Assembly: GCA_004375695.1 (NCBI GenBank) | Contig: SOKQ01000014.1 | Location: 2,067-66,066, forward strand | From: Hadesarchaea archaeon | GTDB taxonomy: Archaea; Hadarchaeota; Hadarchaeia; Hadarchaeales; Hadarchaeaceae | Length of the DNA: 64,000 bases | Direction: 5' to 3' | Shown here: piece by piece, positions 2,195 to 63,657 of the stretch | How the letters are laid out: every line of letters starts with the position of its first letter | Position numbering within the stretch: the stretch's first letter is position 1 | Made by a program: the position numbers and the translations under genes | The notes under the pieces: model-generated | Told to the model about the DNA's origin: nothing | Database searches by the model: none | What the model saw: the letters and a program-made list of their open reading frames with translations, nothing else

Positions 2195-3022
2195 ATGCTG
2201 TTAAAGGTCGCCCTCATTGGTTGTGGCGCAATAGGCACGGTGCTAGCTCAAGCCATCGACGAAGGTAGGGCTGGCAAAGCTGAACTCGCTTGGCTTTATG
2301 ACTTAAAATCAGAGAAATCCGAGGAGCTGGCGAAAAAACTGAGTTTAAAGCCCCGGATAGCAAGAGGTGTGGCGGAGATATACGCCGACAAAACCGTGGA
2401 CTTGGTCATCGAAGCAGCCGCCCAGCTGGCGGTCAAGCAATACTCGCTCGATATCCTTCGCTCAGGTAAAGATCTTATGGTGATGAGCGTGGGAGCATTT
2501 GCGGACGAGAAGCTGTTGAACGCTGCACACAACGCAGCTGAACAAAGTGGTCGTAGGATCTACATTCCATCAGGTGCTGTGTTGGGCATCGATGGGATAA
2601 AAGCGGCCGAGCTAGGCGAAATCAAGGAGGCAACGTTGACAACACGGAAGCCGCCCGCAGCGCTAGCTTACACCGCGTACCTAAAGGAGCGCGACATCAA
2701 GCTGAGGGGACTTAAAAAACCCCGCATTGTGTTCGCAGGATCCGCCCGGGAAGCAGTCAAAGCATTTCCCCGAAGCGTTAATGTAGCAGCAACCCTGAGC
2801 TTGGCTGGCATAGGGCTCGACAAAACAAAAGTTCGCATCATCGCCGACCCAAAGCTCGACCGCAATGTACACAAAATCCGAGTTCGAGGCAAGGCGGGCG
2901 AGCTCGTCACCGAGGCGCGGAATGTGTCGTTCCCCGATGTCCCAAGGACGAGCTACCTCGCGGCGCTCTCGGCTATTCAGACTCTACGAAACCTGAGCGA
3001 GAGTATTCGTGTGGGGACATAA
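2195..3022 (+). CDS. nadX: L-aspartate dehydrogenase
   Basis: N-terminal Rossmann VALIGCGAIG; size 275 aa; directly upstream of nadA-nadC. Confidence 0.75.
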   Translation: MLLKVALIGCGAIGTVLAQAIDEGRAGKAELAWLYDLKSEKSEELAKKLSLKPRIARGVAEIYADKTVDLVIEAAAQLAVKQYSLDILRSGKDLMVMSVGAFADEKLLNAAHNAAEQSGRRIYIPSGAVLGIDGIKAAELGEIKEATLTTRKPPAALAYTAYLKERDIKLRGLKKPRIVFAGSAREAVKAFPRSVNVAATLSLAGIGLDKTKVRIIADPKLDRNVHKIRVRGKAGELVTEARNVSFPDVPRTSYLAALSAIQTLRNLSESIRVGT

Positions 3023-3064
3023 CTTTATAAATTTTGAATATTGCCTAATCTTGAGGGCTTAATC

Positions 3065-3997
3065 ATGAACCCCGAACAGATAAAAAATGCCATCCTGAAG
3101 CTGAAGGACGAGCACAACGCGATTATCCTCGCCCACAACTACCAGCGGGAGGAAATCCAACTCCTCGCCGATTACATAGGGGACTCGCTCGATCTGGCTA
3201 GGTACTCCGCGAAAGTCGATGCCTCCCTCATTCTATTTTGTGGGGTCGATTTCATGGCGGAAACCGCGGCGATCCTGAACCCCAAAAAAACCGTGTTGAT
3301 CCCGGACCCAGAAGCCAGATGCCCCATGGCAGCTCAACTTCCGGCGCAGCTTGTGCGTGAAGCAAAACGGGAACATCCCGGTGCCGCCGTGGTGCTTTAC
3401 GTCAATACGCTGGCCGAGGCTAGGGCTGAGGCCGATGTCACCTGCACCTCGGCGAACGCTCCGCTTATAGTCAACGCTCTTGACGAAGAGGAGATTCTCT
3501 TCGGCCCCGATCGAAATCTCGCTTGGTTCGTGCAGCAACGCAGCGACAAAAAAATCATCCCACTCCCTGACCGCGGTTATTGCTACGTGCACCGAATGTT
3601 CTCTCCCGCAGATATCATGCTGCTGAAGGAGCGCTACCCGGATGCTGAAGTGCTGGTACACCCTGAGTGCGACCCCGAAGTCCAGAATCTTGCCTCACAC
3701 ATCTGCAGCACGAGTCAGATGCTACTTCGAGCCAAGGCATCGCCAGCCAAGCGATTTATCATCGTCACTGAGGTTGGATTGGTCGATCGGCTTCGACGTG
3801 AGTTCCCCGACAAGGAGTTCATCCCCGCGCTCGAGACGGCGGTGTGCAAACAAATGAAAAAGCACACTCTCGAAAAACTTTACCTCGCCCTGCGGGATAA
3901 GAAGCATGTGGTACGCGTGCCACCAAATATAGCTACCAAGGCGCGCGCGGCCACCGAACGCATGCTCGAGATCTCAGGGAGGGCCACCCATGACTAA
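3065..3997 (+). CDS. nadA: Quinolinate synthase
   Basis: ILAHNYQ, FCGVDFMAETA and TSQM motifs; start moved to ATG at 3065. Confidence 0.9.
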   Translation: MNPEQIKNAILKLKDEHNAIILAHNYQREEIQLLADYIGDSLDLARYSAKVDASLILFCGVDFMAETAAILNPKKTVLIPDPEARCPMAAQLPAQLVREAKREHPGAAVVLYVNTLAEARAEADVTCTSANAPLIVNALDEEEILFGPDRNLAWFVQQRSDKKIIPLPDRGYCYVHRMFSPADIMLLKERYPDAEVLVHPECDPEVQNLASHICSTSQMLLRAKASPAKRFIIVTEVGLVDRLRREFPDKEFIPALETAVCKQMKKHTLEKLYLALRDKKHVVRVPPNIATKARAATERMLEISGRATHD

Positions 3998-4880
3998 CGC
4001 GTTTGTAAGGAAAAAAATCCGCGAAATGTTGGCGGAGGACTTAGGTTCTGGCGATATAACATCTAAAGCTCTCCTCTCGTCTAAGGTCAAGGCTAAAGCC
4101 AAAATTGTTGCCGGGCAGCCTGGGGTACTAGCTGGGGTAAGCGAGGCGATGATGGCCTTTGATGAAGTCGGGGTACAAGCGAAAGCCCTCAAGTCCGATG
4201 GGCAACAAATCAAGGCTGGAGATGTGATCCTGCGCCTCGATGGTCCGGCTAGAAGCATCTTCGCGGCCGAGCGAGTGGCGCTTAATTTGCTGATGCGCAT
4301 GAGCGGCATCGCAACGGCGACGCAAGGGCTCATCAATCAAGCTAGGACGAAAAACCCCAATGTTGTGATAGCGGCTACGCGAAAAACTGCCCCCCTATTT
4401 ACCTACTTCGACAAACGCGCGGTTCAGGTTGCTGGTGGAGAGCCCCACCGATACAAACTCAGCGACCACATCCTGATCAAGGGCAATCACCTCAGGCTAG
4501 TCGGTTCGGTGAGTAAAGCAGTCCTCCAAGCGCGTGAAGGCAGCCCGGTGAAGAAGGTGGAAGTTGAAGTAAGCAAGCCGGATGACGCATATGAAGCAGC
4601 CCGTGCAGGTGCGGATGTGGTAATGCTCGACAACATGAAGCCGGCAAACATCATACGCGCGATAAAGATACTTAAGCGAGGAGGGCTGCGGAATCGGGTC
4701 ACACTTGAAGCTTCAGGGGGAATCAATCCCTCAAACGTGGAGAGCTACGTGGCGACCGGTGTGGATGTGATATCATCGAGTTACATCACCATGCGGGCTC
4801 CCGCGCTGGACATGAGGTTGGAACTGAACAGCAAGAGTTTTAAGCCCTCCGCTGGCATGAGGAAGCAGAAATCGAGGTGA
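3990..4880 (+). CDS. nadC: Nicotinate-nucleotide (quinolinate) pyrophosphorylase
   Basis: 296 aa with ATRKT, MLDN and EASGGI motifs; overlaps the nadA stop. Confidence 0.9.
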   Translation: MTNAFVRKKIREMLAEDLGSGDITSKALLSSKVKAKAKIVAGQPGVLAGVSEAMMAFDEVGVQAKALKSDGQQIKAGDVILRLDGPARSIFAAERVALNLLMRMSGIATATQGLINQARTKNPNVVIAATRKTAPLFTYFDKRAVQVAGGEPHRYKLSDHILIKGNHLRLVGSVSKAVLQAREGSPVKKVEVEVSKPDDAYEAARAGADVVMLDNMKPANIIRAIKILKRGGLRNRVTLEASGGINPSNVESYVATGVDVISSSYITMRAPALDMRLELNSKSFKPSAGMRKQKSR

Positions 4881-42129: not shown

Positions 42130-42217
42130 GCCGGGGTAGCCTAGCCAGGTAAGGCGCAGGTTTGGAGAACCTGTGGTCCTTTGGGCCTCAGGGGTTCGAA
42201 TCCCCTCCCCGGCGCCA
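42130..42217 (+). tRNA. tRNA-Ser(GGA), class II, CCA encoded; attL of the integrated element
   Basis: Acceptor GCCGGGG/CCCCGGC, anticodon arm CAGGT-TTGGAGA-ACCTG, long variable arm, T-arm AGGGG-TTCGAAT-CCCCT. Confidence 0.9.
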
Positions 42218-43501: not shown

Positions 43502-44362
43502 TCCGCTTCAACCGCTCCGAGCTGAAGTCTGTGTAGTGCCTTGCCAGCACGCTCCTCGGAACCCTTCCGCAGAAAGCATCCACGTATCGGTCGGCAACTC
43601 CCAACTCGCCCATCTCGGAGCAGAACCAATCTCTCAAGATTTGGGGCGTGATGTGAACTCCTGTTCGCTCCTTCCCTTGAACGTCTTCCGGACCGCCTTC
43701 TCCGAGAACAGTTTAGAATCCAGCGTTAGTTCCCCGCGCCCGTTGAGGTATTCTTTCAGCGCGTGCTTGGCCTCTTCGTTGAAAAATGTCGCCCATGTTC
43801 GTTTGGTCCGGCTGCCATCGCCTTTCGGCAAGACCGTGCGCCTTTCAAGGTCGATTTCCTTTAGCGCAAGGGAGATTAACTCATGCTTTCGCAACCCGGT
43901 TGTGGCATACATCAAGAAAATCGCTCTTTCTCTGGACGACTTGAGTGCGGTATAGAATTTTTGGACGTCCTCTTTTGTGGGGACTGTCTTGAGTTTGAAC
44001 GGCGTGTGGGGCAGCCTGAAACTTTCCACGACCTCGCCCATGCGCATGAAGTCCCTGAAGAACCGGCGCAATGCGATTATCAGGTTCGCCCGCGTTCGCT
44101 CGCGCTTCTCCTTAAATCCTGCGAGATAATTTCGGATGTCGACATCCGTGATCCCGCTAGGGGCTTTCTTAACTGATTTAAAGAAGCGCCTAATTTTCTG
44201 CGCGTGCCCCTTAACCGTATTCTCACGTAATTGTAGGTCAACTTCGCAGAACTGTTTAAAGGAGGCGAGCAACCCGTCCACGTCTAAGGGCGATAAGTTC
44301 TGGGTTTGGAGAACCTGTGGTCCTTTGGGCCGCAGGGGTTCGAATCCCCTCCCCGGCGCCAC
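43467..44362 (-). pseudogene. SSV-type integrase, C-terminal partition int(C), with a frameshift
   Basis: ORF 43634..44362 starts in attR (VAPGRGFEPL...). The catalytic end KERTGVHITPQILRDWFCSEMGELGVADRYVDAFCGRVPRSVLARHYTDFSSERLKRIYDKAGLKVLV is in another frame. The shift is at the G-run near 43672-43677. Confidence 0.8.
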
Positions 44363-46795: not shown

Positions 46796-46902
46796 GCGGG
46801 GGTGGCCGAGTCAGGTCAAAGGTCTAACGACCGACTAAAGGTGCCAGCTTGAGGGGCTGGTCCCGTAGGGGTTCGCGGGTTCAAATCCCGTCCCCCGCAC
46901 CA
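46796..46902 (+). tRNA. tRNA-Leu(GAG), class II, with ~19-nt insertion (intron) in the D-arm region, CCA encoded
   Basis: Acceptor GCGGGGG/CCCCCGC, anticodon arm CCAGC-TTGAGGG-GCTGG, variable arm tcccgtaggggttc, T-arm GCGGG-TTCAAAT-CCCGT. Extra tctaacgaccgactaaagg lies between GTCAAAGG and TGCCAGC. Confidence 0.7.
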
Positions 46903-46953: not shown

Positions 46954-47475
46954 ATGGGAAAAACCGAGACGATAAAGAAAAGGGCCGTGTACGTCTACCT
47001 GCCCTCAGAGGAAACGGCCGAGCGGTGGAAGCAGCTGGCCAAGCGATCTCACGCATCTATATCGAAGTTCGTCATCGAGCGCGTTGAGGACTCGCTCCAC
47101 GGGGAAGGGGAAGAGGGATACCCAAAGCGCGCCGAGCTCATAAAGCAATTGAAGGAACTCGGGGCAACTTTGGCGGCGCGTGAGCAGGAGAACGAGATTC
47201 TGAGACGCGCTTACGAGAGGCTGGACTCCGAACTCAGGCGCTACAGGGCTCAACCATTTCTCGAGGAAGGATTTCAAGGGGTGAGGAGATACGACCGGAA
47301 ATTGGTGAACGTGTTGAGGCAGGGAAAGGTCGTCGGCAGCGATGAGATACTGGAGAGGCTAGGGATCGAGCCCAGCGAAGCCGATTTGGTCAAGGCCGTG
47401 AGCAGGCAGCTTGAGGGCCTCGAGGCATACGGATTGGTAAAAGCCACCGCGAGGGGATGGAAATGGACGGGCTGA
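46954..47475 (+). CDS. RHH-like N-terminus / coiled coil / wHTH-like C-terminus DNA-binding protein
   Basis: 173 aa; KKRAVYVYLPSEETAERWKQLAKRSHASISKFVIERV (RHH-like); overlaps the integrase start. Confidence 0.45.
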   Translation: MGKTETIKKRAVYVYLPSEETAERWKQLAKRSHASISKFVIERVEDSLHGEGEEGYPKRAELIKQLKELGATLAAREQENEILRRAYERLDSELRRYRAQPFLEEGFQGVRRYDRKLVNVLRQGKVVGSDEILERLGIEPSEADLVKAVSRQLEGLEAYGLVKATARGWKWTG

Positions 47476-48428
47476 CTTTATCCCAGTATTCTGGGCAACA
47501 TCGGGTTCCCGGCACTCAGGAGCTGATCGGGGGATTCGAACAGGACTGCACGGACCGGGGGCTCACCGGGGAGACAACGAGGCACTACGTACACGTGCTG
47601 AAGCTCTTCTCGAGATTCGTCGAGAGTCAGGGCATCTCCCCCCTCGATGTCGACAAGTACGTGCTGAGGAATTTCATTCGACACAGGCGGGCCGGGGGGG
47701 TGGAGTCGAAGACGTTGAAGAACGAGCTATCAGCCCTGTCAGCGTTCTACGGTTATCTCTGCTTCGAGGGCCTCGTGCAGACCAACCCCATCTCCCCGGT
47801 CCGAAAGCGGTTCCTAAAGGGTTACAAGGGAGGGCTGGATGACCCGCAGAGGAAGCTGATTTCGGTGGGGGAGATGGCGAAGCTCGTGAACTCCGTGCTG
47901 GATCCCAGGGATAAGGCGATAATCCTCTTGCTTGCTAAAACAGGCGTGCGGAGGGGTGAACTCATATCCATGGATGTGGACGACATAGACTGGGCCAAAC
48001 AATCGATAATCCTCAAGCCCAAGCGGAAAAGAAGCAACAGGATCGTATTTTTCGACGACGAGTGCGCGAGGGCATTAAAGCGCTGGCTGAAGGTGAGGGG
48101 TGAGCTCAAACCGAAAACCGAGGCGCTCTTCGTCGGGGCTGGATGGGTTCGGCTGAAGCGAAATGGAGTTTACTCGCTCGTATGCAAGCACGCTCAAAGG
48201 GTCGGGCTTCACGATTCCAAGTCGCCCAAGCTCGAAGATCATCTCACTCCGCACTGCTTCAGGCACTGGTTCACGACGTGGTTGCGAAAAAATGGGATGT
48301 CCCGCGAGTTCATCCAAGAACTCAGAGGGGACAGGCGGAAGGAGGCTATAGACATATACGACCACATAGACCGCGCTGAGCTGAGAAAAGCGTACTTAGC
48401 CTGCATCCCGCAGCTCGGCGTAGCTTGA
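47457..48428 (+). CDS. Tyrosine recombinase/integrase (XerC/D-like, non-partitioned)
   Basis: TGVRRGEL (Arg I), HLTPHCFRHWF (H-x-x-R), GDRRKEAIDIYDH (His/Tyr region); 323 aa. Confidence 0.85.
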   Translation: MEMDGLTLSQYSGQHRVPGTQELIGGFEQDCTDRGLTGETTRHYVHVLKLFSRFVESQGISPLDVDKYVLRNFIRHRRAGGVESKTLKNELSALSAFYGYLCFEGLVQTNPISPVRKRFLKGYKGGLDDPQRKLISVGEMAKLVNSVLDPRDKAIILLLAKTGVRRGELISMDVDDIDWAKQSIILKPKRKRSNRIVFFDDECARALKRWLKVRGELKPKTEALFVGAGWVRLKRNGVYSLVCKHAQRVGLHDSKSPKLEDHLTPHCFRHWFTTWLRKNGMSREFIQELRGDRRKEAIDIYDHIDRAELRKAYLACIPQLGVA

Positions 48429-48441
48429 TTTCTATAAAGGT

Positions 48442-49071
48442 TCAGCGGAAGGACCAAAACAATGCCGAGTCCAAGACCTTTGGATCCTCTTTTATTTTTT
48501 TCACGTCAAAGGTGATTGCAACTCGGAGTTTGCCGTCCTGGACTATTTTCTTCCTAAACTCCGGGCTCTCTGCCAGCACCTTCAAAGCTCTCCAAATGTT
48601 CTCCGAGAAACTTGCTAGGTCCTCTTTATCTGTTGGCTCAGGTGAGAGGTCAATGCAAATGTTTTCGGCTAGGCTCGTTCTAAGCCGCTCAACCCTCTCA
48701 CGTACTTTCTCATCCGCGATGTATGCGTGCTTCGAGCCGAGAAAAGCTGCGGTAAAGCCGAGTAAAAGCCTATGAGTCTTTGATTTGCTCATGAAATGAC
48801 TCACAAGACCGAGACGCCTAAGTTCCGCTTCTACCCTTTTGTTTACGGCTGCTCTTAAAGGTGACTCGGAAACTGAGCTGAGTACTTGGAGCCCCAAGAG
48901 AGTTGTTCTGTATCCTTCATCACTTTTCTCCAAGAATTTCGAGTCAACGAGTTCATTTAAATGTTTGTTCAATGTTTTATCCGTAACTGAGAGCGCACTC
49001 TTTAGCTCAATCCATCTCATTTTCTTCTTTGAGCATTCAAGAAGAATTTTCTTCTTTGGTTCGGTTAACAT
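48442..49071 (-). CDS. wHTH-domain protein with unknown C-terminal domain
   Basis: N-terminus MLTEPKKKILLECSKKKMRWIELKSALSVTDKTLNKHLNELVDSKFLEKSDEGY is wHTH-like; start moved to the second Met, consistent with an upstream TATA-like box. Confidence 0.5.
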   Translation of the reverse strand: MLTEPKKKILLECSKKKMRWIELKSALSVTDKTLNKHLNELVDSKFLEKSDEGYRTTLLGLQVLSSVSESPLRAAVNKRVEAELRRLGLVSHFMSKSKTHRLLLGFTAAFLGSKHAYIADEKVRERVERLRTSLAENICIDLSPEPTDKEDLASFSENIWRALKVLAESPEFRKKIVQDGKLRVAITFDVKKIKEDPKVLDSALFWSFR

Positions 49072-49132
49072 AGCAGGGCACCCCATGCAAAGTATTTATG
49101 GGCTACGGTATAAAAAAGTACTGGTGCTGTGC
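49072..49132. promoter_or_regulatory. Divergent promoter region with two TATA-like boxes
   Basis: cataaata on the minus strand (49093-49100) and tataaaaaag on the plus strand (49109-49118), between the divergent genes. Confidence 0.3.
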
Positions 49133-49438
49133 ATGGTATACCCTGCCCTGCCAAGAAAAAGCGTTAAAAACCACGGTGTTCAAGGCCTGGGAAAATGGGA
49201 GGAGGCGGTCGGGAAGATCTCGGCCGTCGATGAGAGTTGCGGCTTGCTCACCGTTGAGTTGAACATCGGTTCTCTGACATTTCCAGCTGATAGTCTTGAG
49301 GCGAATACTATCCGTACACGTCTGAAAAACGCTGCAGGGGACACCGTGGCCATTTTGCGTACAGATCTGGCTAGCCAGCCCATTGCCGTAAGAATCCTCG
49401 AAAAGAACAAGGTGAATTCGGGTGGCGGGGGTGATTAA
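49133..49438 (+). CDS. Small hypothetical protein (~101 aa)
   Basis: Non-overlapping part of ORF 48839..49438; stop lies 1 nt before the ATG of the next gene. Confidence 0.35.
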   Translation: MVYPALPRKSVKNHGVQGLGKWEEAVGKISAVDESCGLLTVELNIGSLTFPADSLEANTIRTRLKNAAGDTVAILRTDLASQPIAVRILEKNKVNSGGGGD

Positions 49439-49439
49439 G

Positions 49440-50408
49440 ATGGAATGGTGGATTCCGTTAATCGCCGCAGTTACTTGGACGCTTCTCCTTTTGCGCGATG
49501 TCCAGAGAAGGCCCCTCACCGGCTGGGGTGATCTACTTACCGAGCTATTAGGCGCATGGGTGGGCTCATTCTCGCTCTACATCGGGGCCCATCTCATCAC
49601 GACGAAGGTGATCGCGCCGCTTATCAAGACATGGGTCGTGCCATCGCTCCAAGTAGTGCTGGGAGTTGAGTTGGGGTGGTTTGCTCTCTTTTTTACCATT
49701 TTTTCACTCCTATGGCGAAAACTTGGCAAGACTACAGAAGAGAAAATGGATGCCGAGTGCAGAGCGGTTGCAAAACTTTGGAAGAATGCGGAGGAATATA
49801 TAGGGAGGATGTGGGAGTGTCTGGAGGAACTAAAAAAGAAGACCAACCGTCAAAAAAATGAGCAGAGAACCGGACACCAAGAGATCCTACAGCTTTTTAG
49901 AGAACTTAATAATCGTTTACAGAACCTTGCGGATCAAATTGCTGAGCTACCAAAAAAAGCGTCGATCGTAGGGGAGAGGGTGAGGGTCGAGGGGTTGGAG
50001 TGTCAGGGGTGGTCCGCCCAGCTATTCAGGAACTTCGGGTTCGATGTGGAGAACAAGGAGGGGCTCGGGGAACCCGACCACATCCTTCGCTTAGGCGGGA
50101 GGATAAAGTGCGTCGTGGCCGCAAAGAATTGGCGAATAACTAACCAGAACTGGACGGTGAACGAGGAAAGGATACGCCCGGAGTTGAAGCTGGCGAGAAC
50201 GCGCAAAGTTCCTCTAGTTGTCCACGTCCGGAACAAGGAGAACAACAGGAACTTCTTCCACATCTTCCGCGCGGATGGGCTGACCGAGGAGTGCAAGGTG
50301 ACCACTCCAGATTGGCTCAGGAGGGGGGATCTCTCGGAGGGCGACAGGCAAAAGATGATGGAGAATTATAGGCGGTTCCACCGCTTTGTGGATGAAATTA
50401 CTCGGTAG
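49440..50408 (+). CDS. Membrane-anchored coiled-coil protein with C-terminal Hjc/PD-(D/E)xK-like nuclease fold
   Basis: 3 predicted TM helices (MEWWIPLIAAVTWTLLLL..), heptad-like region (EELKKKTNRQKNEQ..LQNLADQIAEL). C-terminal GERVRVEGLECQGWSAQLFRNFGFDV..GEPDHILRLGGRIKCVVAAKNW resembles the Hjc E..PD..ExK layout, but with AAK. Confidence 0.5.
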   Translation: MEWWIPLIAAVTWTLLLLRDVQRRPLTGWGDLLTELLGAWVGSFSLYIGAHLITTKVIAPLIKTWVVPSLQVVLGVELGWFALFFTIFSLLWRKLGKTTEEKMDAECRAVAKLWKNAEEYIGRMWECLEELKKKTNRQKNEQRTGHQEILQLFRELNNRLQNLADQIAELPKKASIVGERVRVEGLECQGWSAQLFRNFGFDVENKEGLGEPDHILRLGGRIKCVVAAKNWRITNQNWTVNEERIRPELKLARTRKVPLVVHVRNKENNRNFFHIFRADGLTEECKVTTPDWLRRGDLSEGDRQKMMENYRRFHRFVDEITR

Positions 50409-50940
50409 TGCGATTTTCATTACCCGCTACCCTAATAAACTCGTCTTTTGCCCATTTTCATTACTCAGTAAGACGGAACCAGAGGGCTTCTTTTCCAAAA
50501 TAGAAGGGCATATCTTGCTATTCAGTAGTTCGGACAGCATTACTGAACGTGCTACCGATTATTTTTCGGCCCCATCACCCTATATAGTAGATCTCTATGT
50601 ATGTCAATTTTCCACTGTATTTTCATGGCTCGTTTTTTGCCCGCTCGCATACGCCTCGGAATTTTTCCAATTTTCATTTGAAGAAAAATTCCTCGGCTTT
50701 GCTCGTTCGCGGTAGACTTGTTTCTCGCTCATAGTCTATCACGACTGCTCTTGCTCGTTGGACATTCGTCAGAGACAGAGACGCTGACGCTGGCGGTTAC
50801 AACGACGGTTAACTTGTGAGTGTTTTCATTCTTTTTTGTTATCTGCGCGCGGCTTTCTTTACGCGCGCGTCCCCGCCTAGCTTTTTGGGCGAGGTTTAAC
50901 TTCAGGTGCAAGCGGCGGTGTCGACCGAAGCACTGGCGCC

Positions 50941-51334
50941 ACAACTCCCCTCCCCGTCTTTTTTCTGCTCTGAAGGGGAGGGACGGGAAGAGAAGAGGGA
51001 ACGGGTCATGTCCCGTCCGGCGAGAAGGGAACCGCCAAGCCCACGCCGCGCTTCGGGAACGCCACGCTTCGGGAACGGGAAGGGAAAAGGGACGGCCCCC
51101 ACGCTCGCCTCCCGTCCCTTCACCACCCGTCCAGCGGCGAGGGGTCCGGGACGGGAAGGGACGAGGGAACGGGCAGTTTCTCGGGCGAGGTGCTCACCGT
51201 CTCCCCTCGCTTCCCCGCAGTTGTTTTTTCGCGCGTTTTTTTCGGGAGACAAAAGGGACGTGTCGGGAGACGGGAGGAGGGAGAGCGAAGGGAAGAGGGA
51301 CCGGGGAACCTCTAAGCAGCATTGGTCATTCGTC
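50941..51334 (+). repeat. G-rich/C-rich block repeat region A
   Basis: Alternating C-rich (ctcccctccccgtc, cctcccgtcccttcaccacccgtcc) and GGGA-rich blocks. Shares a 70-nt unit (51233-51302, 67/70 identical to 61144-61213) and an exact 20-mer (51314-51333 = 61094-61113) with region B. Confidence 0.8.
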
Positions 51335-51437
51335 GGGACTCAGGCTGGCGGACCTCAAGGAAGAGGATGAGGGTTAAATTTAGTAAGTTTACCTAGCAGT
51401 TCTAAACAGGCTGTTGTAAAAATGTGGAGAGGCAAAA

Positions 51438-51809
51438 ATGGCTTCGAGCAAAGAAGTTGAAAGGAAAGCGATTAAACTGGTAATGAAAAAGTTGCACATT
51501 GTGGATATTCCGCCTTACAAACAGGCCCCAGCCGACATACATGAAAAGGAAAATCAGAAGAAAAGAGCTGAAGCTTTGAAAACTGAAGCAGAAAAGCTAT
51601 TCGAAAATCAGATGAGGGGAAAAGTACACCTAAAAGTTGAATATCACAGGCATAAAGGGAGGTCTGACGCAGCCAACATAATCGGCGGTATAGCTGATGC
51701 TTTGAACAAAATAGCGTATGTTGATGATAAGCAAATAGTAGAAATCCATTACCATGAAGCATTAGGGAAAGTTGACGAGTACTGGGTAGAGATAGAGGAA
51801 GTAATATAG
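51438..51809 (+). CDS. RusA-like Holliday junction resolvase
   Basis: GRSDAANIIGGIADALNKIAYVDDKQIV matches the RusA pattern D-x-D/A-N-x6-DAL-x6-DD-x-Q-V; 123 aa. Confidence 0.55.
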   Translation: MASSKEVERKAIKLVMKKLHIVDIPPYKQAPADIHEKENQKKRAEALKTEAEKLFENQMRGKVHLKVEYHRHKGRSDAANIIGGIADALNKIAYVDDKQIVEIHYHEALGKVDEYWVEIEEVI

Positions 51810-52375: not shown

Positions 52376-52467
52376 GCCGTTTCCCCCCGAGCCGTTTCGC
52401 GCGCTATGGGACGGGACGGGTGGAGTGAATGAAGGGAAGAGGGAAAAGGGAAATTCATCATTTGGCA
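52376..52467 (+). repeat. G-rich repeat region C (R1 unit)
   Basis: gccgtttcc..ccgtttcgcgcgctatgggacgggacgggtggagtgaatgaagggaagagggaaaagggaaattcatcatttggca aligns with 60795-60884 with few differences. Confidence 0.8.
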
Positions 52468-56341: not shown

Positions 56342-56668
56342 TCAGTCCACGCCGTATCTTTCCAAACGTTTTTTAATTTCGAGAACTTCACCTATTTGTG
56401 ATGCCTTATACCTATGCAAGTCTCCATTAAAAGCGGAGAGAATCCCCCCCGCCATACCTACTGTCGCAATGATTCGGAGTATATTATAGGCTGGATTTGC
56501 TATAATTGCTATAAAAGTCACGGCAAAAATTGAGAAGAACACCGCGGACCAAGATATTGAAACGTAACATCTGCTTTTCTCAATACGATATTCAGCCAAC
56601 AAAAACTGAATGTCCTCTTTACGCAACTTTTGTTTTGGTTTCCAACGGGTTCGTCGACATAACTTCAT
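56342..56668 (-). CDS. Small 2-TM membrane protein coupled to the voltage-sensor protein
   Basis: Basic N-terminus, TM1 VSISWSAVFFSIFAVTFIAIIA, TM2 ILRIIATVGMAGGILSAF; ATG overlaps the upstream stop (ATGA). Confidence 0.5.
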   Translation of the reverse strand: MKLCRRTRWKPKQKLRKEDIQFLLAEYRIEKSRCYVSISWSAVFFSIFAVTFIAIIANPAYNILRIIATVGMAGGILSAFNGDLHRYKASQIGEVLEIKKRLERYGVD

Positions 56669-57144
56669 GCGCGATCCCTCCTCTCGCCCCTTCGTCGTCG
56701 GAATTTCTTCACCGTCTTCCTCAGCTTTGGCATCTTCCGTGCTAGCTTAAGTGCTTTCGCCGCTTTGGTGACCTTCGCTGCCTTTGTAACCTTTACAACT
56801 CTCGTCACTTTCGCAACCCTAGCAACTCTCGCAATTCTGGCAACCCTCGCTACCCTGAACAGCCTAAACGCGCGGATTATGCTCATCTCCATTACAAGGG
56901 CTGGAATCGAACCCAAGATGTCTGCCCAGCTATCGCGTAGGCAGCCCCTTTTGGATGGCGCCTTATGGAACCTGAGACCGAACTCGGTTATGAAGATCGC
57001 GCATACCCCAAGGTCAATCCATCCAAAAAGCCCCTCTTGTTCGGGGGTCGGCTCGAAAACGAGCGACACGACAAGTAAGCTCAGCGCGAAAATCGCCAGC
57101 CCAGCCATCGCAATATCGGTACCTCCTAACTTTTCTTGTCCCAT
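56665..57144 (-). CDS. Stand-alone voltage-sensor domain (S1-S4) protein, no pore domain
   Basis: S2-like WIDLGVCAIFITEFGLRF, S3-like SWADILGSIPALV, S4 RAFRLFRVARVARIARVARVAKVTRVVKV... with R/K at every third residue; ORF ends in a basic tail. Confidence 0.65.
   Translation of the reverse strand: MGQEKLGGTDIAMAGLAIFALSLLVVSLVFEPTPEQEGLFGWIDLGVCAIFITEFGLRFHKAPSKRGCLRDSWADILGSIPALVMEMSIIRAFRLFRVARVARIARVARVAKVTRVVKVTKAAKVTKAAKALKLARKMPKLRKTVKKFRRRRGERRDRA
56740..56874 (-). repeat. Degenerate 9-nt (3-codon) periodic tract encoding the extended S4 helix
   Basis: About 15 consecutive units of ARR-GTN-GCN type (agg gta gcg / agg gtt gcc / aga att gcg ...). Confidence 0.7.
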
Positions 57145-60749: not shown

Positions 60750-61262
60750 GGTTATCCCTGCCCTCCCCTCACCGCCCTCACGTCCCTTCCCCCTGCCGTT
60801 CCCCCAGGCCGTTTCGCGCGCTATGGGACGGGACGGGTGGAGCGAATGAAGGGAGGAGGGAAAAGGGAAATTTATCATTTGGCACGGAGAAACCAAACAC
60901 GCCCGTCCTCAAGCCCTTTCTTTCGTGAGTATTCTAGCGGGGGGAAACAGGAGACGGGAGAAGGGAGAGCGATCAGTCAGGCATCATCGTTCCAGCATTT
61001 TCCCTCCTCCTCACTGTCTCCCCTCCAGCGCGATTTTTTTAGGGACCAAGGACGGGTAGAGGGAGAGCGAAGGGAGGAGGGAGAGCGAATTTCAAGCAGC
61101 ATTGGTCATTCGTTTCGTTTTTTTCCCACTTCACGTTTTCTCGGCGTTTTTTTCGGGAGACGGAAGGGACGTGTCGGGAGACGGGAGGAGGGAGAGCGAG
61201 GGGAAGAGGGACCAAGGAAGGGAGAAGGGATCTAAACATCAGCCAAGTGCCATCCACTCGTT
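60750..61262 (+). repeat. G-rich/C-rich block repeat region B
   Basis: Contains the R1 unit (60795-60884), the 20-mer (61094-61113), the 70-nt unit (61144-61213) and further diverged GGGA-rich units. Confidence 0.8.
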
Positions 61263-61393: not shown

Positions 61394-62803
61394 ATGAAAA
61401 TTGATAAGGGGCGATCGTTCAACATGGCGAGTACTATTAAGATAACGGCCCGAACCGAAAAGAAAGAAATTGGAGGTCAAGTTTTCACGCCAGAACCAAT
61501 CGTGGCCCTCATGGTGGAAAAACTCTTTCAAAGAAAGCATCCAAAGCGCGACGACAGCGTTCTCGATCCAGGTTGCGGCGCCGGTGCTTTCATTAAGGGG
61601 GTCTTAAACTGGTGCACACGTAAGGGCATTGAAGCCCCCCGCATCGTCGGAATCGAATTTGACTCTAAACTTTTGGGCGAGGCTCGAAAGTCATTTGAAG
61701 GTCTAGAAAACGTCACATTGATAAATGAGAACTTTTTGCTTGGGGACTTCGAGACCTTCGATTTTATTATAGGCAACCCACCTTACGTTCGCCTTGAAGG
61801 ATTAAGCGAATCCGAGCGTGAGACATATCGGAAAATGTTCGATACCGCCGTAAATCGATTCGACCTCTACATGCTTTTTTTCGAGAAGGCGTTAAAGAGT
61901 CTGAAGCCCTCTGGACGTCTCGTTTTTATAACGCCAGAAAAATACGAATATACCTTGACAACCAAGCCCCTTAGGAAACTCATGGCTAGGTACCATGTAG
62001 AGGAAATCCACCACATTAGCGAGGATGTTTTTAAAGACCTTGTGACGTATCCAACAATCACAACAATCAACGGAAGCGGGCGGGGGCCAACCAAGGTCAT
62101 CCACCGAGATGGATCTTCAATCACTATCAAAAAAATTCCTGCAGATGGGTCTAGGTGGGTTTTGGCCATTAAAGGAGGGGCCGAGCCTGTCAGACTTGGC
62201 CCAGTTCTAGCAGACGTGTGCCTGCGCATCAGTTGTGGAGTAGCGACTGGCGCTGACGAAGTCTTTGTGATGCCCAAGGAAGGGGTCCCAGAATCCTTGA
62301 AACCCTATGCCCACCCAACCATTGGCGGGGAACAATTGACTAAAGGTGTTAGAGCCTCGGATGTGATGCTCATCCCTTATGACAGATCGGGGGGGCTTCT
62401 CCCCGAGGAGAAATTGAAAAATTTCAAGCGCTGGTTCTCTAAGCACAAGAAACACCTTTCATCTAGGTATTGTGTCAGGAAAGGAAAGCATAAGTGGTAT
62501 TCGTTTCACGAGAATCCACCCATGTCCGACATACTCAGGCCGAAGATCCTGTGTAAGGACATCGCTAAAGAACCTAAATTCTGGACCGATCCAGAAGGCA
62601 ACATCGTGCCTAGGCACTCAGTATACTATATCGTTCCTAAGGACCCCAAGATTCTGTATGGGTTCCTCGGTTACCTAAACAGCGAGAAGGTTCATAGGTG
62701 GCTAGTGGCCCGATGCCAGAGGGCCGCAAACGATTTCATGCGTCTACAGTCCAGCGTACTGAAAGATATTCCGATCCCTTCTAAGTGGGTTGAGAGACAA
62801 TGA
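61394..62803 (+). CDS. N6-adenine DNA methyltransferase (gamma-class, Eco57I/TaqI-like)
   Basis: VFTPEPIV, SAM motif VLDPGCGAGAF, catalytic GNPPYV; 469 aa; start may be 61424. Confidence 0.85.
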   Translation: MKIDKGRSFNMASTIKITARTEKKEIGGQVFTPEPIVALMVEKLFQRKHPKRDDSVLDPGCGAGAFIKGVLNWCTRKGIEAPRIVGIEFDSKLLGEARKSFEGLENVTLINENFLLGDFETFDFIIGNPPYVRLEGLSESERETYRKMFDTAVNRFDLYMLFFEKALKSLKPSGRLVFITPEKYEYTLTTKPLRKLMARYHVEEIHHISEDVFKDLVTYPTITTINGSGRGPTKVIHRDGSSITIKKIPADGSRWVLAIKGGAEPVRLGPVLADVCLRISCGVATGADEVFVMPKEGVPESLKPYAHPTIGGEQLTKGVRASDVMLIPYDRSGGLLPEEKLKNFKRWFSKHKKHLSSRYCVRKGKHKWYSFHENPPMSDILRPKILCKDIAKEPKFWTDPEGNIVPRHSVYYIVPKDPKILYGFLGYLNSEKVHRWLVARCQRAANDFMRLQSSVLKDIPIPSKWVERQ

Positions 62804-63657
62804 AGCCGAAGGATTACCCTCGTCCCAACATCGGCGAACTCCCTAGCCTTTATGCAGGGCTTGACAACCTAGTTCAGCGCGTAGATGCCGCAATCCGTAA
62901 TCTACCTGAACATCTTTTTGACAAAGAAAAAGAGATTATACACTTCGGGAGGATGAACGAAGGCGAGTTTCGGAAACTTGTGGCTAGTGATCCGGAAGCC
63001 ATGGTCATAGCCTTCACGCGAGTATGTGGCCTTTCAATCCGCGAATTTTCCCGGTTGTTCGAATTAAAAGATGTTTACAGACTACAATCAAAATGGGCCG
63101 GAAGGAAAGACGAGAATCTCTTTGTGAAATCCATAATGGGGCTTCTACCAAAGCAGATGCACCTCGAAACTTTTCTTTATACTTTCTACAAGATGTGGGA
63201 AGAGCACCAAAAACGCCACCGTCGGGGGCGCGAGTTTGAAGAAGAGGTTCGAGATTTCTTCCGTGCGCGCGGATACGAATGTGAGAAGATAACCAGCCCC
63301 ATAGAGGTCAATGGAGCAATTCCATCCATCAATCCGCGCGCGGTCTTCCAAGTTCGTACAGGGGTAATGCGAGACCTCGTTAAAAGGGCCAAAGAGTTCG
63401 GCTCTGAGTTTAGGCTGTCTGCAAAGGCATTTCCCGGTGCCAAGTTCATAGCGGTTTTTAAGATCCCACCTCACGAACTTAACAGGCGGACCGAAATCAG
63501 GCAAAAAATATTGGAACACCGTGTCGGGAGGGAATACGACGTTATCTTTCAGGACGAACTTGAGGAAGTGCTCAAGAAGTTCAAGGAGTGGAATATTCCA
63601 AAAGGCAAACCTAAGCCGCTGGTGCTTTTGGGTGTAGAAAGAAAATCCGTTTCATAG
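62800..63657 (+). CDS. Putative cognate restriction endonuclease
   Basis: Overlaps the methyltransferase stop by 4 nt; GREFEEEVRDFFRARGYECEKI resembles the N-terminal core of PD-(D/E)xK enzymes; otherwise an orphan. Confidence 0.45.
   Translation: MKPKDYPRPNIGELPSLYAGLDNLVQRVDAAIRNLPEHLFDKEKEIIHFGRMNEGEFRKLVASDPEAMVIAFTRVCGLSIREFSRLFELKDVYRLQSKWAGRKDENLFVKSIMGLLPKQMHLETFLYTFYKMWEEHQKRHRRGREFEEEVRDFFRARGYECEKITSPIEVNGAIPSINPRAVFQVRTGVMRDLVKRAKEFGSEFRLSAKAFPGAKFIAVFKIPPHELNRRTEIRQKILEHRVGREYDVIFQDELEEVLKKFKEWNIPKGKPKPLVLLGVERKSVS

Follow-up and report, generated by a model that had tools for sequence, protein, structure and literature searches.

Within a 64,000-nucleotide (nt) stretch of DNA from a Hadesarchaea archaeon (contig SOKQ01000014.1; henceforth referred to as the window), positions 48442-50408 hold a two-gene operon and a regulator gene that is transcribed divergently from it. 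The second gene of the operon encodes a 322-amino-acid (aa) protein (P0001) in which a predicted membrane anchor is joined, through a long helical stalk, to a domain resembling the archaeal Holliday junction resolvase Hjc, and this raises the question of what a nuclease of such a kind would do at the membrane. The three-gene arrangement had been proposed in an initial annotation made from the letters of the sequence, and all of its features were found at these positions. The protein itself divides as follows:

49440-50408, plus strand: gene of the 322-aa protein, from ATG to stop codon, second gene of the two-gene operon
49440-49715, plus strand: residues 1-92, three predicted transmembrane helices (membrane anchor), from AlphaFold2, hydropathy and the distribution of lysine and arginine
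49716-49955, plus strand: residues 93-172, predicted heptad-patterned helical stalk continuous with the third transmembrane helix, from AlphaFold2 and a shuffle test
49956-50408, plus strand: residues 173-322 and stop codon, predicted Hjc-like PD-(D/E)xK nuclease domain with a PD-xxK-E type site, from the model, Foldseek and profiles

Architecture, fold and active site of the 322-aa protein

The translation of the gene holds the strings quoted in the initial annotation, and the ATG at 49440 is favoured as the start codon over a GTG at 49422, since a homologue of 53% identity (P0005) aligns from the same methionine. An AlphaFold2 model predicted from the single sequence was unusable (predicted local distance difference test score, pLDDT, of 48.5) and was replaced by one built on an alignment of 36 sequences, for which the mean pLDDT was 87.9, with values of 94-98 over residues 181-320. 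The N-terminal part of this model consists of helices at residues 4-21 and 29-63 and of one long helix at residues 70-168, in which the third transmembrane (TM) helix passes into the stalk (stalk pLDDT 74-88). Together with three moderately hydrophobic segments in the hydropathy profile (peaks 1.45-1.8), these helices back the three N-terminal TM helices that had first been proposed, and the heptad-like linker proposed to follow them gains support both from the single modelled helix and from the shuffle test, where the hydrophobic bias at heptad positions a and d over residues 95-172 was reached by 17 of 2000 shuffles.

When 1.84 billion representatives were searched exhaustively with phmmer, 37 relatives of P0001 emerged, and these 37 representatives (clustered at 50% identity and of the same architecture) constitute the family considered here; an alignment-based search of a 5.8-billion-protein set added almost nothing to it. 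Among members with three TM segments, lysine and arginine are absent before the first segment and enriched after the first and after the third, a pattern that under the positive-inside rule points to a topology in which the N-terminus would lie outside the cell and the nuclease domain in the cytoplasm. The nuclease domain is kept throughout the family; the N-terminal anchor and the stalk are variable in sequence and length, and the TM region is the least conserved part. The start of the nuclease domain in TM-bearing members spans residues 132-277 (151-277 if P0040, in which one TM segment was detected, is set aside), so that the length of the stalk varies widely.

No entry with this architecture of TM helices, stalk and Hjc-like domain was found in Pfam, PHROGs, PADLOC, NCBIfam, the PDB or BFVD. 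The statement in the initial annotation that membrane tethering of an Hjc-like fold was not known therefore holds for these databases, but a tethered nuclease of another fold does have a precedent in SNIPE (PMC13190303). Two sets of database matches were set aside: sub-threshold matches of P0001 to Spc24, ZorA, HmpF and TraP in Pfam, PHROGs, PADLOC and NCBIfam were rejected as compositional coiled-coil noise, and a profile of the whole protein searched against the PDB mainly picked up proteins with TM or coiled-coil segments (such as ZorA, MotA, apolipoproteins and designed bundles) and was replaced by a profile of the C-terminal domain.

As modelled, this C-terminal domain is a PD-(D/E)xK superfamily fold of Hjc-like type. 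Its elements are a helix at residues 174-198, strands at 202-205, 214-218 and 221-231, a helix at 242-255, strands at 259-265 and 271-276 and a terminal helix at 300-321; the alpha-beta-beta-beta-alpha-beta core of the superfamily is present, and all top matches in the PDB are PD-(D/E)xK nucleases. The best Foldseek match in the PDB was a chain of SPARDA, the DREN nuclease of a short prokaryotic Argonaute (pAgo) system (E 6.4e-4), followed by the archaeal Hjc structures 1gef, 4tkd, 2wcw and 1ob8 (E 8e-4, with TM-scores of 0.6-0.72 when normalised to Hjc). The matches that Foldseek returned from BFVD were small viral PD-(D/E)xK proteins, and a rudivirus resolvase took rank 5. At the sequence level, the best matches of the domain-only profile in the PDB were Sso Hjc (E 0.02) and Pfu Hjc (E 0.048), and hhalign against an alignment of canonical Hjc proteins from the same phylum gave 89% probability (E 2e-6, 94 columns). 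P0001 itself has no match to Pfam Hjc (PF01870), the links to Hjc being made at the profile-profile and PDB-profile level, and one family member (P0017) exceeds the cut-off of Pfam Mrr_cat (PF04471), with 23.9 bits against 21. Overall, the Hjc or PD-(D/E)xK layout that had been read into the C-terminal domain is borne out by Foldseek, by the domain profile and by hhalign.

Two side observations concern Hjc proper. The domain profile also retrieves bona fide Pfam-Hjc proteins reading S-C-K in place of E-x-K, and in three genomes (G060, G064 and G062) the sole Hjc-like proteins (L014, positions 952-1374, L058 and L060, respectively) pass the Pfam Hjc cut-off and read V-S-C-K as opposed to the canonical I-E-x-K; on sequence grounds we regard these as a free-standing SxK variant of Hjc that is profile-related to the tethered family. 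Within the taxonomic family of the host (genomes G003-G047), Pfam Hjc was found in one of 46 genomes and weakly so (G046, E 3.3e-6, 27 bits, above the cut-off), none of the matches being strong, whereas sister families of the same order give strong Hjc matches (E 1e-28 to 1e-34); the host lineage may use a different junction resolvase.

The residues of the putative active site were located by aligning the domain to Hjc by profile and by hhalign. Q189 (codon 50004-50006) falls on the first Glu of Hjc, D213 (50076-50078) on the Asp, A227 (50118-50120) on the Glu of ExK and K229 (50124-50126) on the Lys, so that the tetrad Glu-Asp-Glu-Lys of Hjc (E12, D42, E55 and K57 in Sso) is not matched and AAK does stand where ExK would be expected, as had been noticed at the outset. 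The conclusion drawn from this, that the catalytic motif is degenerate, proved misleading. Loss of the ExK Glu is a property of the whole family: over 36 members, position 227 is Ser or Ala in 29, while D213 is present in all 36, K229 is Lys in 31 (Arg in four, Gln in one), Q189 is Gln in 33 and Glu in three, N265 is kept in 35 of the 36 and E248, on the next helix (codon 50181-50183), in 32. The same PD-xxK-E order is documented in the active restriction enzymes Cfr10I and NgoMIV as well as Ecl18kI, SsoII and PspGI, where the carboxylate has moved in sequence and not in space (PMC551604). By sequence order, the predicted active site (D213, K229 and E248) is a PD-xxK-E variant, and the conservation pattern argues for a working site over decay, because D213, K229, E248, Q189 and N265 are nearly invariant across the family.

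The operon, its control region and related loci

The remaining features of the locus are:

48442-49071, minus strand: 209-aa regulator with an N-terminal winged helix-turn-helix (wHTH), divergent from the nuclease operon, from weak Pfam matches
49072-49132, no strand assigned: divergent control region of 61 bp, read directly from the sequence
49133-49438, plus strand: 101-aa small protein P0002, first gene of the operon; its stop codon TAA ends at 49438 and is followed by one G and then by the ATG of the nuclease gene at 49440

The initial annotation had described the wHTH gene as diverging across a 61-bp region with two TATA-like boxes, and each of these features is present. Pfam matches of the regulator (HVO_A0261_N at 7.4e-8, DUF7347 and HTH_45) lie each just under the cut-off, and its start at MLTEPKK is backed by a homologue at locus L006 that aligns from MLTEPKK (29% identity), an alternative ATG lying upstream at 49086. 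The TATA-like box of the plus strand is TATTTAT at 49094-49100; that of the minus strand is spanned by TATAAAAAA at 49109-49117 and reads TTTTTTATA on the minus strand (49117-49109). Either box would serve a start codon that follows 33-46 nt downstream of it. Both boxes are enclosed by an imperfect inverted repeat with arms of 20 nt each (49073-49092 and 49127-49146) and 80% complementarity, which contains an exact 8-nt core (GCAGGGCA/TGCCCTGC) and reaches both start codons, and at L006 a 31-nt inverted repeat of unlike sequence occupies an analogous position. We infer that the inverted repeat is a candidate operator of the divergent wHTH regulator. A scan for sigma-70 promoters and terminators used bacterial models and was uninformative for an archaeal host.

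The order of integrase, divergent regulator, small open reading frame (ORF) and tethered nuclease (henceforth TM-nuclease) recurs in deep branches of this rare archaeal family. In L006-L010 (nuclease P0008) the whole block is repeated, from a tRNA-Leu through a gene for a 173-aa protein, the integrase and the wHTH gene on the opposite strand to the small ORF and the TM-nuclease. Identity between the window and L006 is 85% for the 173-aa protein, 79% for the integrase, 60% for the small ORF, 29% for the wHTH protein and 28% for the nuclease. L020 carries an integrase, an opposed wHTH gene, small ORFs and the nuclease, and L005 an opposed wHTH gene, a 71-aa ORF and the nuclease, the wHTH genes of both loci being at the same position as in the window. 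At L001 the order is tRNA, integrase, ParB_N, a 135-aa ORF and nuclease, and at L003, L011 and L022 a small ORF precedes the nuclease. In L003 we also observed, about 1 kb downstream of the TM-nuclease homologue, a gene (2807-4786) whose 660-aa product combines an N-terminal coiled coil with MORN-variant and RHS repeats. A distant metagenomic subgroup (L062-L070, the soil subgroup) has an integrase, a divergent 224-aa protein, a 67-aa ORF, the nuclease and an AbrB/MazE-like gene; identification of its 224-aa protein as a wHTH regulator was rejected, the alignment being weak (hhalign E 0.02).

Conservation of the neighbourhood, on which the initial annotation had made its proposal depend, is partial. 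A Pfam-backed divergent wHTH gene is found in four of about nine independent contexts and a small, mostly coupled ORF in nearly all; in the soil subgroup, a fifth type of context, the protein at the regulator position is HTH-like by pattern only. The phylum comprises 66 species with genomes of roughly 1 Mb, and the TM-nuclease is present in just one of its 66 genomes. The gene is mobile and patchily distributed, and its identity to the L006 counterpart is far below that of the integrase. A search of genome contigs with P0001 alone returned no related loci.

Several of these loci also carry defence genes. Within about 1 kb of the TM-nuclease, L063 and L065-L068 encode a short pAgo (PADLOC pAgo_I, 2e-149) and a TIR-APAZ protein (TIR_2, 2e-20; for example at 8140-11099 of L066), which together form a system of the SPARTA type; the islands concerned are bounded by integrases and come from metagenome contigs. 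In L070 the pAgo position is taken instead by an AAA_15 ATPase resembling AriA/GajA. Other such neighbours are Mrr in L011 and an Eco57I-type methylase in the window.

The island and its insertion site

In the window, the nuclease operon lies on an island with the following features:

46796-46899, plus strand: tRNA-Leu(GAG) whose D-arm region carries about 19 nt of inserted sequence (Rfam tRNA, 44.1 bits; missed by ARAGORN)
46954-47475, plus strand: 173-aa ribbon-helix-helix-like/wHTH-like protein, whose gene overlaps the start of the integrase gene; part of the conserved integration module
47457-48428, plus strand: tyrosine recombinase, the island integrase (Pfam Phage_integrase, E 2.1e-28, and SAM-like N-terminal domains)
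50409-51437, no strand assigned: gap of about 1 kb without a convincing ORF, 3' of the nuclease gene, with AT-rich repeated motifs followed by G-rich repeats
51438-51809, plus strand: RusA-like Holliday junction resolvase, the next island gene after the nuclease (Pfam RusA, 34.1 bits against a cut-off of 22.8; PHROG 140, E 8e-10)

The island starts directly 3' of the end of the tRNA-Leu(GAG), which marks the left junction (attL side), and at the syntenic loci L006-L008 the same junction sequence, identical downstream of the CCA end, follows an intron-less tRNA-Leu(CAA). The integration target of the island is the tRNA-Leu(GAG) at 46796-46899. On its 5' side lie rps13, rps4, rps11 and rpoD, and from the integration module onwards the G+C content of the window drops. 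A second copy of the tRNA 3' end (attR) was not found on the contig, which ends 975 bp past the window, or in the rest of the 0.63-Mb assembly (66% complete). Family matches of the 173-aa protein are weak and Arc/RelB-like alone.

Past the integrase the island genes are accessory, among them the RusA-like resolvase and the Eco57I-type methylase. The module of 173-aa protein and integrase was found at 25 archaeal genome loci (in Bathyarchaeia, Archaeoglobi, Thermoplasmata and others), and the TM-nuclease at none of the 25. Because these loci have the same integrase module without the nuclease, the latter is accessory cargo at the integrase-proximal end of the island and not part of its core machinery.

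Further observations were made on the island and its surroundings. The genomes in which the module was found (L024-L048; 36-58% identity) are metagenome-assembled ones labelled Bathyarchaeia, Archaeoglobi, Thermoplasmata, Methanomassiliicoccales and Nitrososphaerota. Among them the cargo past the integrase varies; L027, for instance, has a primase-helicase together with a ParB-methyltransferase. The gap after the nuclease gene contains repeated ATTTTCAT(TAC) motifs and then GGGA(A/C)GGG G-rich repeats, and segments of 76 and 84 nt from it recur 8.4-9.9 kb downstream at 93-94% identity (52376-52467 and 60750-61262 being involved); long ORFs called on both of its strands are probably composition artefacts. 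Most related loci likewise have a long non-coding gap after the nuclease gene, which measures about 360-1700 bp in L001, L003, L005, L006, L011 and L020. At 56665-57144 on the minus strand, a 159-aa island protein matches the voltage-sensor part of Ion_trans (E 2.3e-9) without the pore domain, and 61394-63657 holds the Eco57I/TaqI-type N6-adenine methyltransferase (469 aa) followed by an overlapping 285-aa ORF without a family match, which may be the cognate restriction enzyme. Finally, a truncated tyrosine integrase of 242 aa with a partial Phage_integrase match (43634-44362, minus strand) adjoins a tRNA-Ser(GGA) at 42130-42217; it is what is left of another integrated element, now decayed, which lies just upstream of the genes for ribosomal proteins.

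Possible functions and comparison with known systems

The initial annotation had suggested a sensor or an effector in defence or in maintenance of the element, and a role in either appears plausible from the sequence data. By analogy with known systems we tentatively favour, with slightly less than even confidence, exclusion of or defence against incoming foreign DNA by a nuclease that is held at the membrane and faces the cytoplasm. The three N-terminal TM helices, with the N-terminus outside, would run into a heptad stalk of about 75 residues, and the stalk would probably dimerise two C-terminal Hjc-like heads, as Hjc does. On the cytoplasmic side, the tether would hold the heads at a distance from the chromosome and close to where DNA of viruses or plasmids comes in, so that self and non-self would be discriminated by location and incoming DNA would be cut; the wHTH protein would set expression of the nuclease via the inverted repeat. 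The idea of a defence function is strengthened by the defence genes that adjoin TM-nuclease loci.

Several observations weigh against this proposal. The defence neighbours may reflect mere location on cargo-rich islands, the family is not found in PADLOC, and searches of IMG/VR viral contigs with P0001 and with the subgroup alignment A9 returned no relative. Routes of virus entry in archaea are unlike phage injection. Several short members of the family have no TM helices and may be either fragments or truly soluble forms. As regards chemistry, both Glu residues of the canonical Hjc tetrad are replaced (Q189 and A227), and catalysis would rest on E248 being close to D213 and K229. Two members (P0027 and P0036) have Glu at position 227 and have lost E248, but they also carry an Asp two residues past position 248 and belong to one subclade, so that this covariation is no more than suggestive of compensation.

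A first alternative, which we consider unlikely, is a toxin-antitoxin or abortive infection system in which the nuclease is a toxin checked by the co-translated small protein, by the membrane tether or by both, and in which loss of the island or infection would free the toxin and lead to death or arrest. The small ORF does lie directly upstream, as had been pointed out for the ORF of roughly 100 aa that ends 1 nt before the nuclease ATG. Stop and start codons overlap or are separated by 1-6 nt in most contexts (the window, L001, L003, L005, L011, L022 and L064-L066), and the gap widens to 56 nt in L006 and 82 nt in L020; in L020 and the soil subgroup the nuclease gene is flanked by small genes of AbrB/MazE-like type, and the divergent wHTH gene resembles an autoregulator. 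However, the upstream ORFs are not homologous across the family, as a conserved cognate partner of a type II system would be. P0002, which has no family match in Pfam, PHROGs, PADLOC or NCBIfam, is homologous to its counterparts in L006 and in L022 (33% identity, E 8e-7 for the latter), and the ORFs at the other loci are unrelated. Proteins of the P0002 type moreover adjoin integrases without any nuclease (L027 and L061), so that P0002 is not a dedicated antidote, and it is hard to see what a classical type II pair would need a conserved TM anchor and a long stalk for. The small ORF was also rejected as a dedicated partner of the nuclease. Because P0002-type proteins adjoin integrases that lack a nuclease and the other upstream ORFs are unrelated, P0002 is more likely a small regulator of the element, as far as its sequence relationships indicate. 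The term two-gene module overstates the case: a small and mostly translationally coupled upstream ORF is found in nearly all contexts, but it is not the same ORF.

Another alternative, to which we assign a similarly low probability, is that the protein works at the membrane for the element itself, in processing or partition of its DNA, either by resolving or trimming branched intermediates or as a weakly catalytic DNA-binding tether for segregation, packaging or transfer. The nearest fold is that of a junction resolvase, the gene is always near those for the integrase and regulators, in L001 it is closely preceded by ParB_N, the taxonomic family of the host is without a strong Pfam Hjc and two canonical catalytic Glu residues are replaced, all of which would fit such a role. 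Yet the island already has a RusA-like resolvase, genes for replication, packaging or transfer are not consistently linked, and the integrase module that occurs 25 times without the nuclease speaks against core machinery; a variable N-terminal region combined with a strictly conserved nuclease site also fits a conflict system better than housekeeping of an element. A membrane effector, in which the Hjc-like domain would recognise foreign or branched DNA and the TM helices would oligomerise and depolarise the membrane to bring about abortive infection, would suit the reduced E-D-E-K tetrad, the three TM helices with an oligomerising stalk and the weak match of the coiled coil to ZorA, but is very improbable given that D213, K229, E248 and N265 are near-invariant, which fits chemistry over binding alone, that the TM region is the least conserved part and that the ZorA matches lie far under the cut-offs and cover the coiled coil only.

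Exclusion of incoming DNA thus remains our preferred explanation. A wider claim, namely that the family is the first archaeal system to tell self from non-self by location, using a stalk-held dimeric Hjc-like nuclease with a rebuilt Q/D/K/E site, independent of SNIPE and spread on islands that integrate at tRNA-Leu, is one that we regard as possible and rather doubtful. To our knowledge, nothing comparable to SNIPE has been described in archaea, for which knowledge of defence systems and of the ways in which viruses enter is poor, and the family offers a compact single-protein candidate that is directly testable. It is a further natural case of a rewired active site among PD-(D/E)xK nucleases of the Hjc branch, and it marks widespread archaeal islands beside tRNA-Leu that combine a conserved integrase module with variable cargo, including short pAgo systems. 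If the domain were structure-specific like Hjc, it would show a repair enzyme recruited into genetic conflict. A survey of archaeal "dark matter" from 2014 lists PD-(D/E)xK nucleases linked to integrated elements, which may or may not be of the present family (PMC4158269).

Of the known systems, Hjc (PF01870; 1gef, 1hh1, 1ob8 and 2wcw) shares the alpha-beta-beta-beta-alpha-beta core with P0001, and its G-x(n)-GF helix, PD strand and Lys strand align. P0001 has 322 aa, a stalk and three TM helices, in contrast to Hjc, which at about 120-140 aa is a small soluble homodimer that cleaves four-way junctions; the Hjc tetrad is E-D-E-K, where P0001 has Q-D-A-K and the extra conserved E248, and it is encoded by a chromosomal housekeeping gene and not on a mobile island. 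The PD-xxK-E enzymes (PMC551604) have the same order of a PD, a small residue-x-K on the next strand and a conserved downstream Glu, but are soluble and sequence-specific; the likeness extends to the order of these elements and to the superfamily. Mrr_cat (PF04471) belongs to the same PD-(D/E)xK clan, but P0001 and most members of its family have no Mrr_cat match, and there is no Mrr_N domain.

Among defence systems, the DREN nuclease of SPARDA (9qcc, 9jt2 and 9vx6), to which the top Foldseek match belongs, is a PD-(D/E)xK effector, but SPARDA nucleases are APAZ-fused, activated by pAgo filaments and devoid of a membrane anchor, and normalisation to the whole target yields low TM-scores. Zorya (ZorA) and Kiwa (PMC12904381) have in common with our proposal the idea that membrane location determines specificity, but they are multi-protein systems with separate nuclease or DNA-binding subunits, and the MotA-like channel is lacking in P0001; matches of P0001 to ZorA models in PADLOC (12.9 bits) and NCBIfam (13.3 bits, cut-off 190) are below threshold and confined to the coiled coil.

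The closest likeness in organisation is to SNIPE, the bacterial system with which it was shown, as late as 2026, that sequestering a nuclease in space can serve defence (PMC13190303; the logic is reviewed in PMC12904381). In SNIPE a helical linker joins an N-terminal TM helix to a GIY-YIG nuclease in the cytoplasm, which cuts phage DNA as it is injected; the nuclease is the conserved part and the N-terminus the hypervariable one, and removal of the TM anchor renders SNIPE toxic (PMC13190303). P0001 would share with it an N-out TM anchor, here predicted, an elongated helical link to a C-terminal cytoplasmic nuclease, the pairing of a conserved nuclease with a hypervariable N-terminal region, and occurrence in defence or mobile contexts. 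The differences are equally clear: SNIPE is bacterial, has one TM helix, a DNA-binding DUF4041 and a GIY-YIG nuclease (neither DUF4041 nor GIY-YIG was found in P0001 with Pfam), and its function has been shown experimentally, whereas the present protein is known from its sequence and a model. The concept of a membrane-tethered nuclease is thus already known from bacteria, and the protein described here is a new family in the PD-(D/E)xK/Hjc branch, an archaeal analogue of SNIPE rather than a relative or a member.

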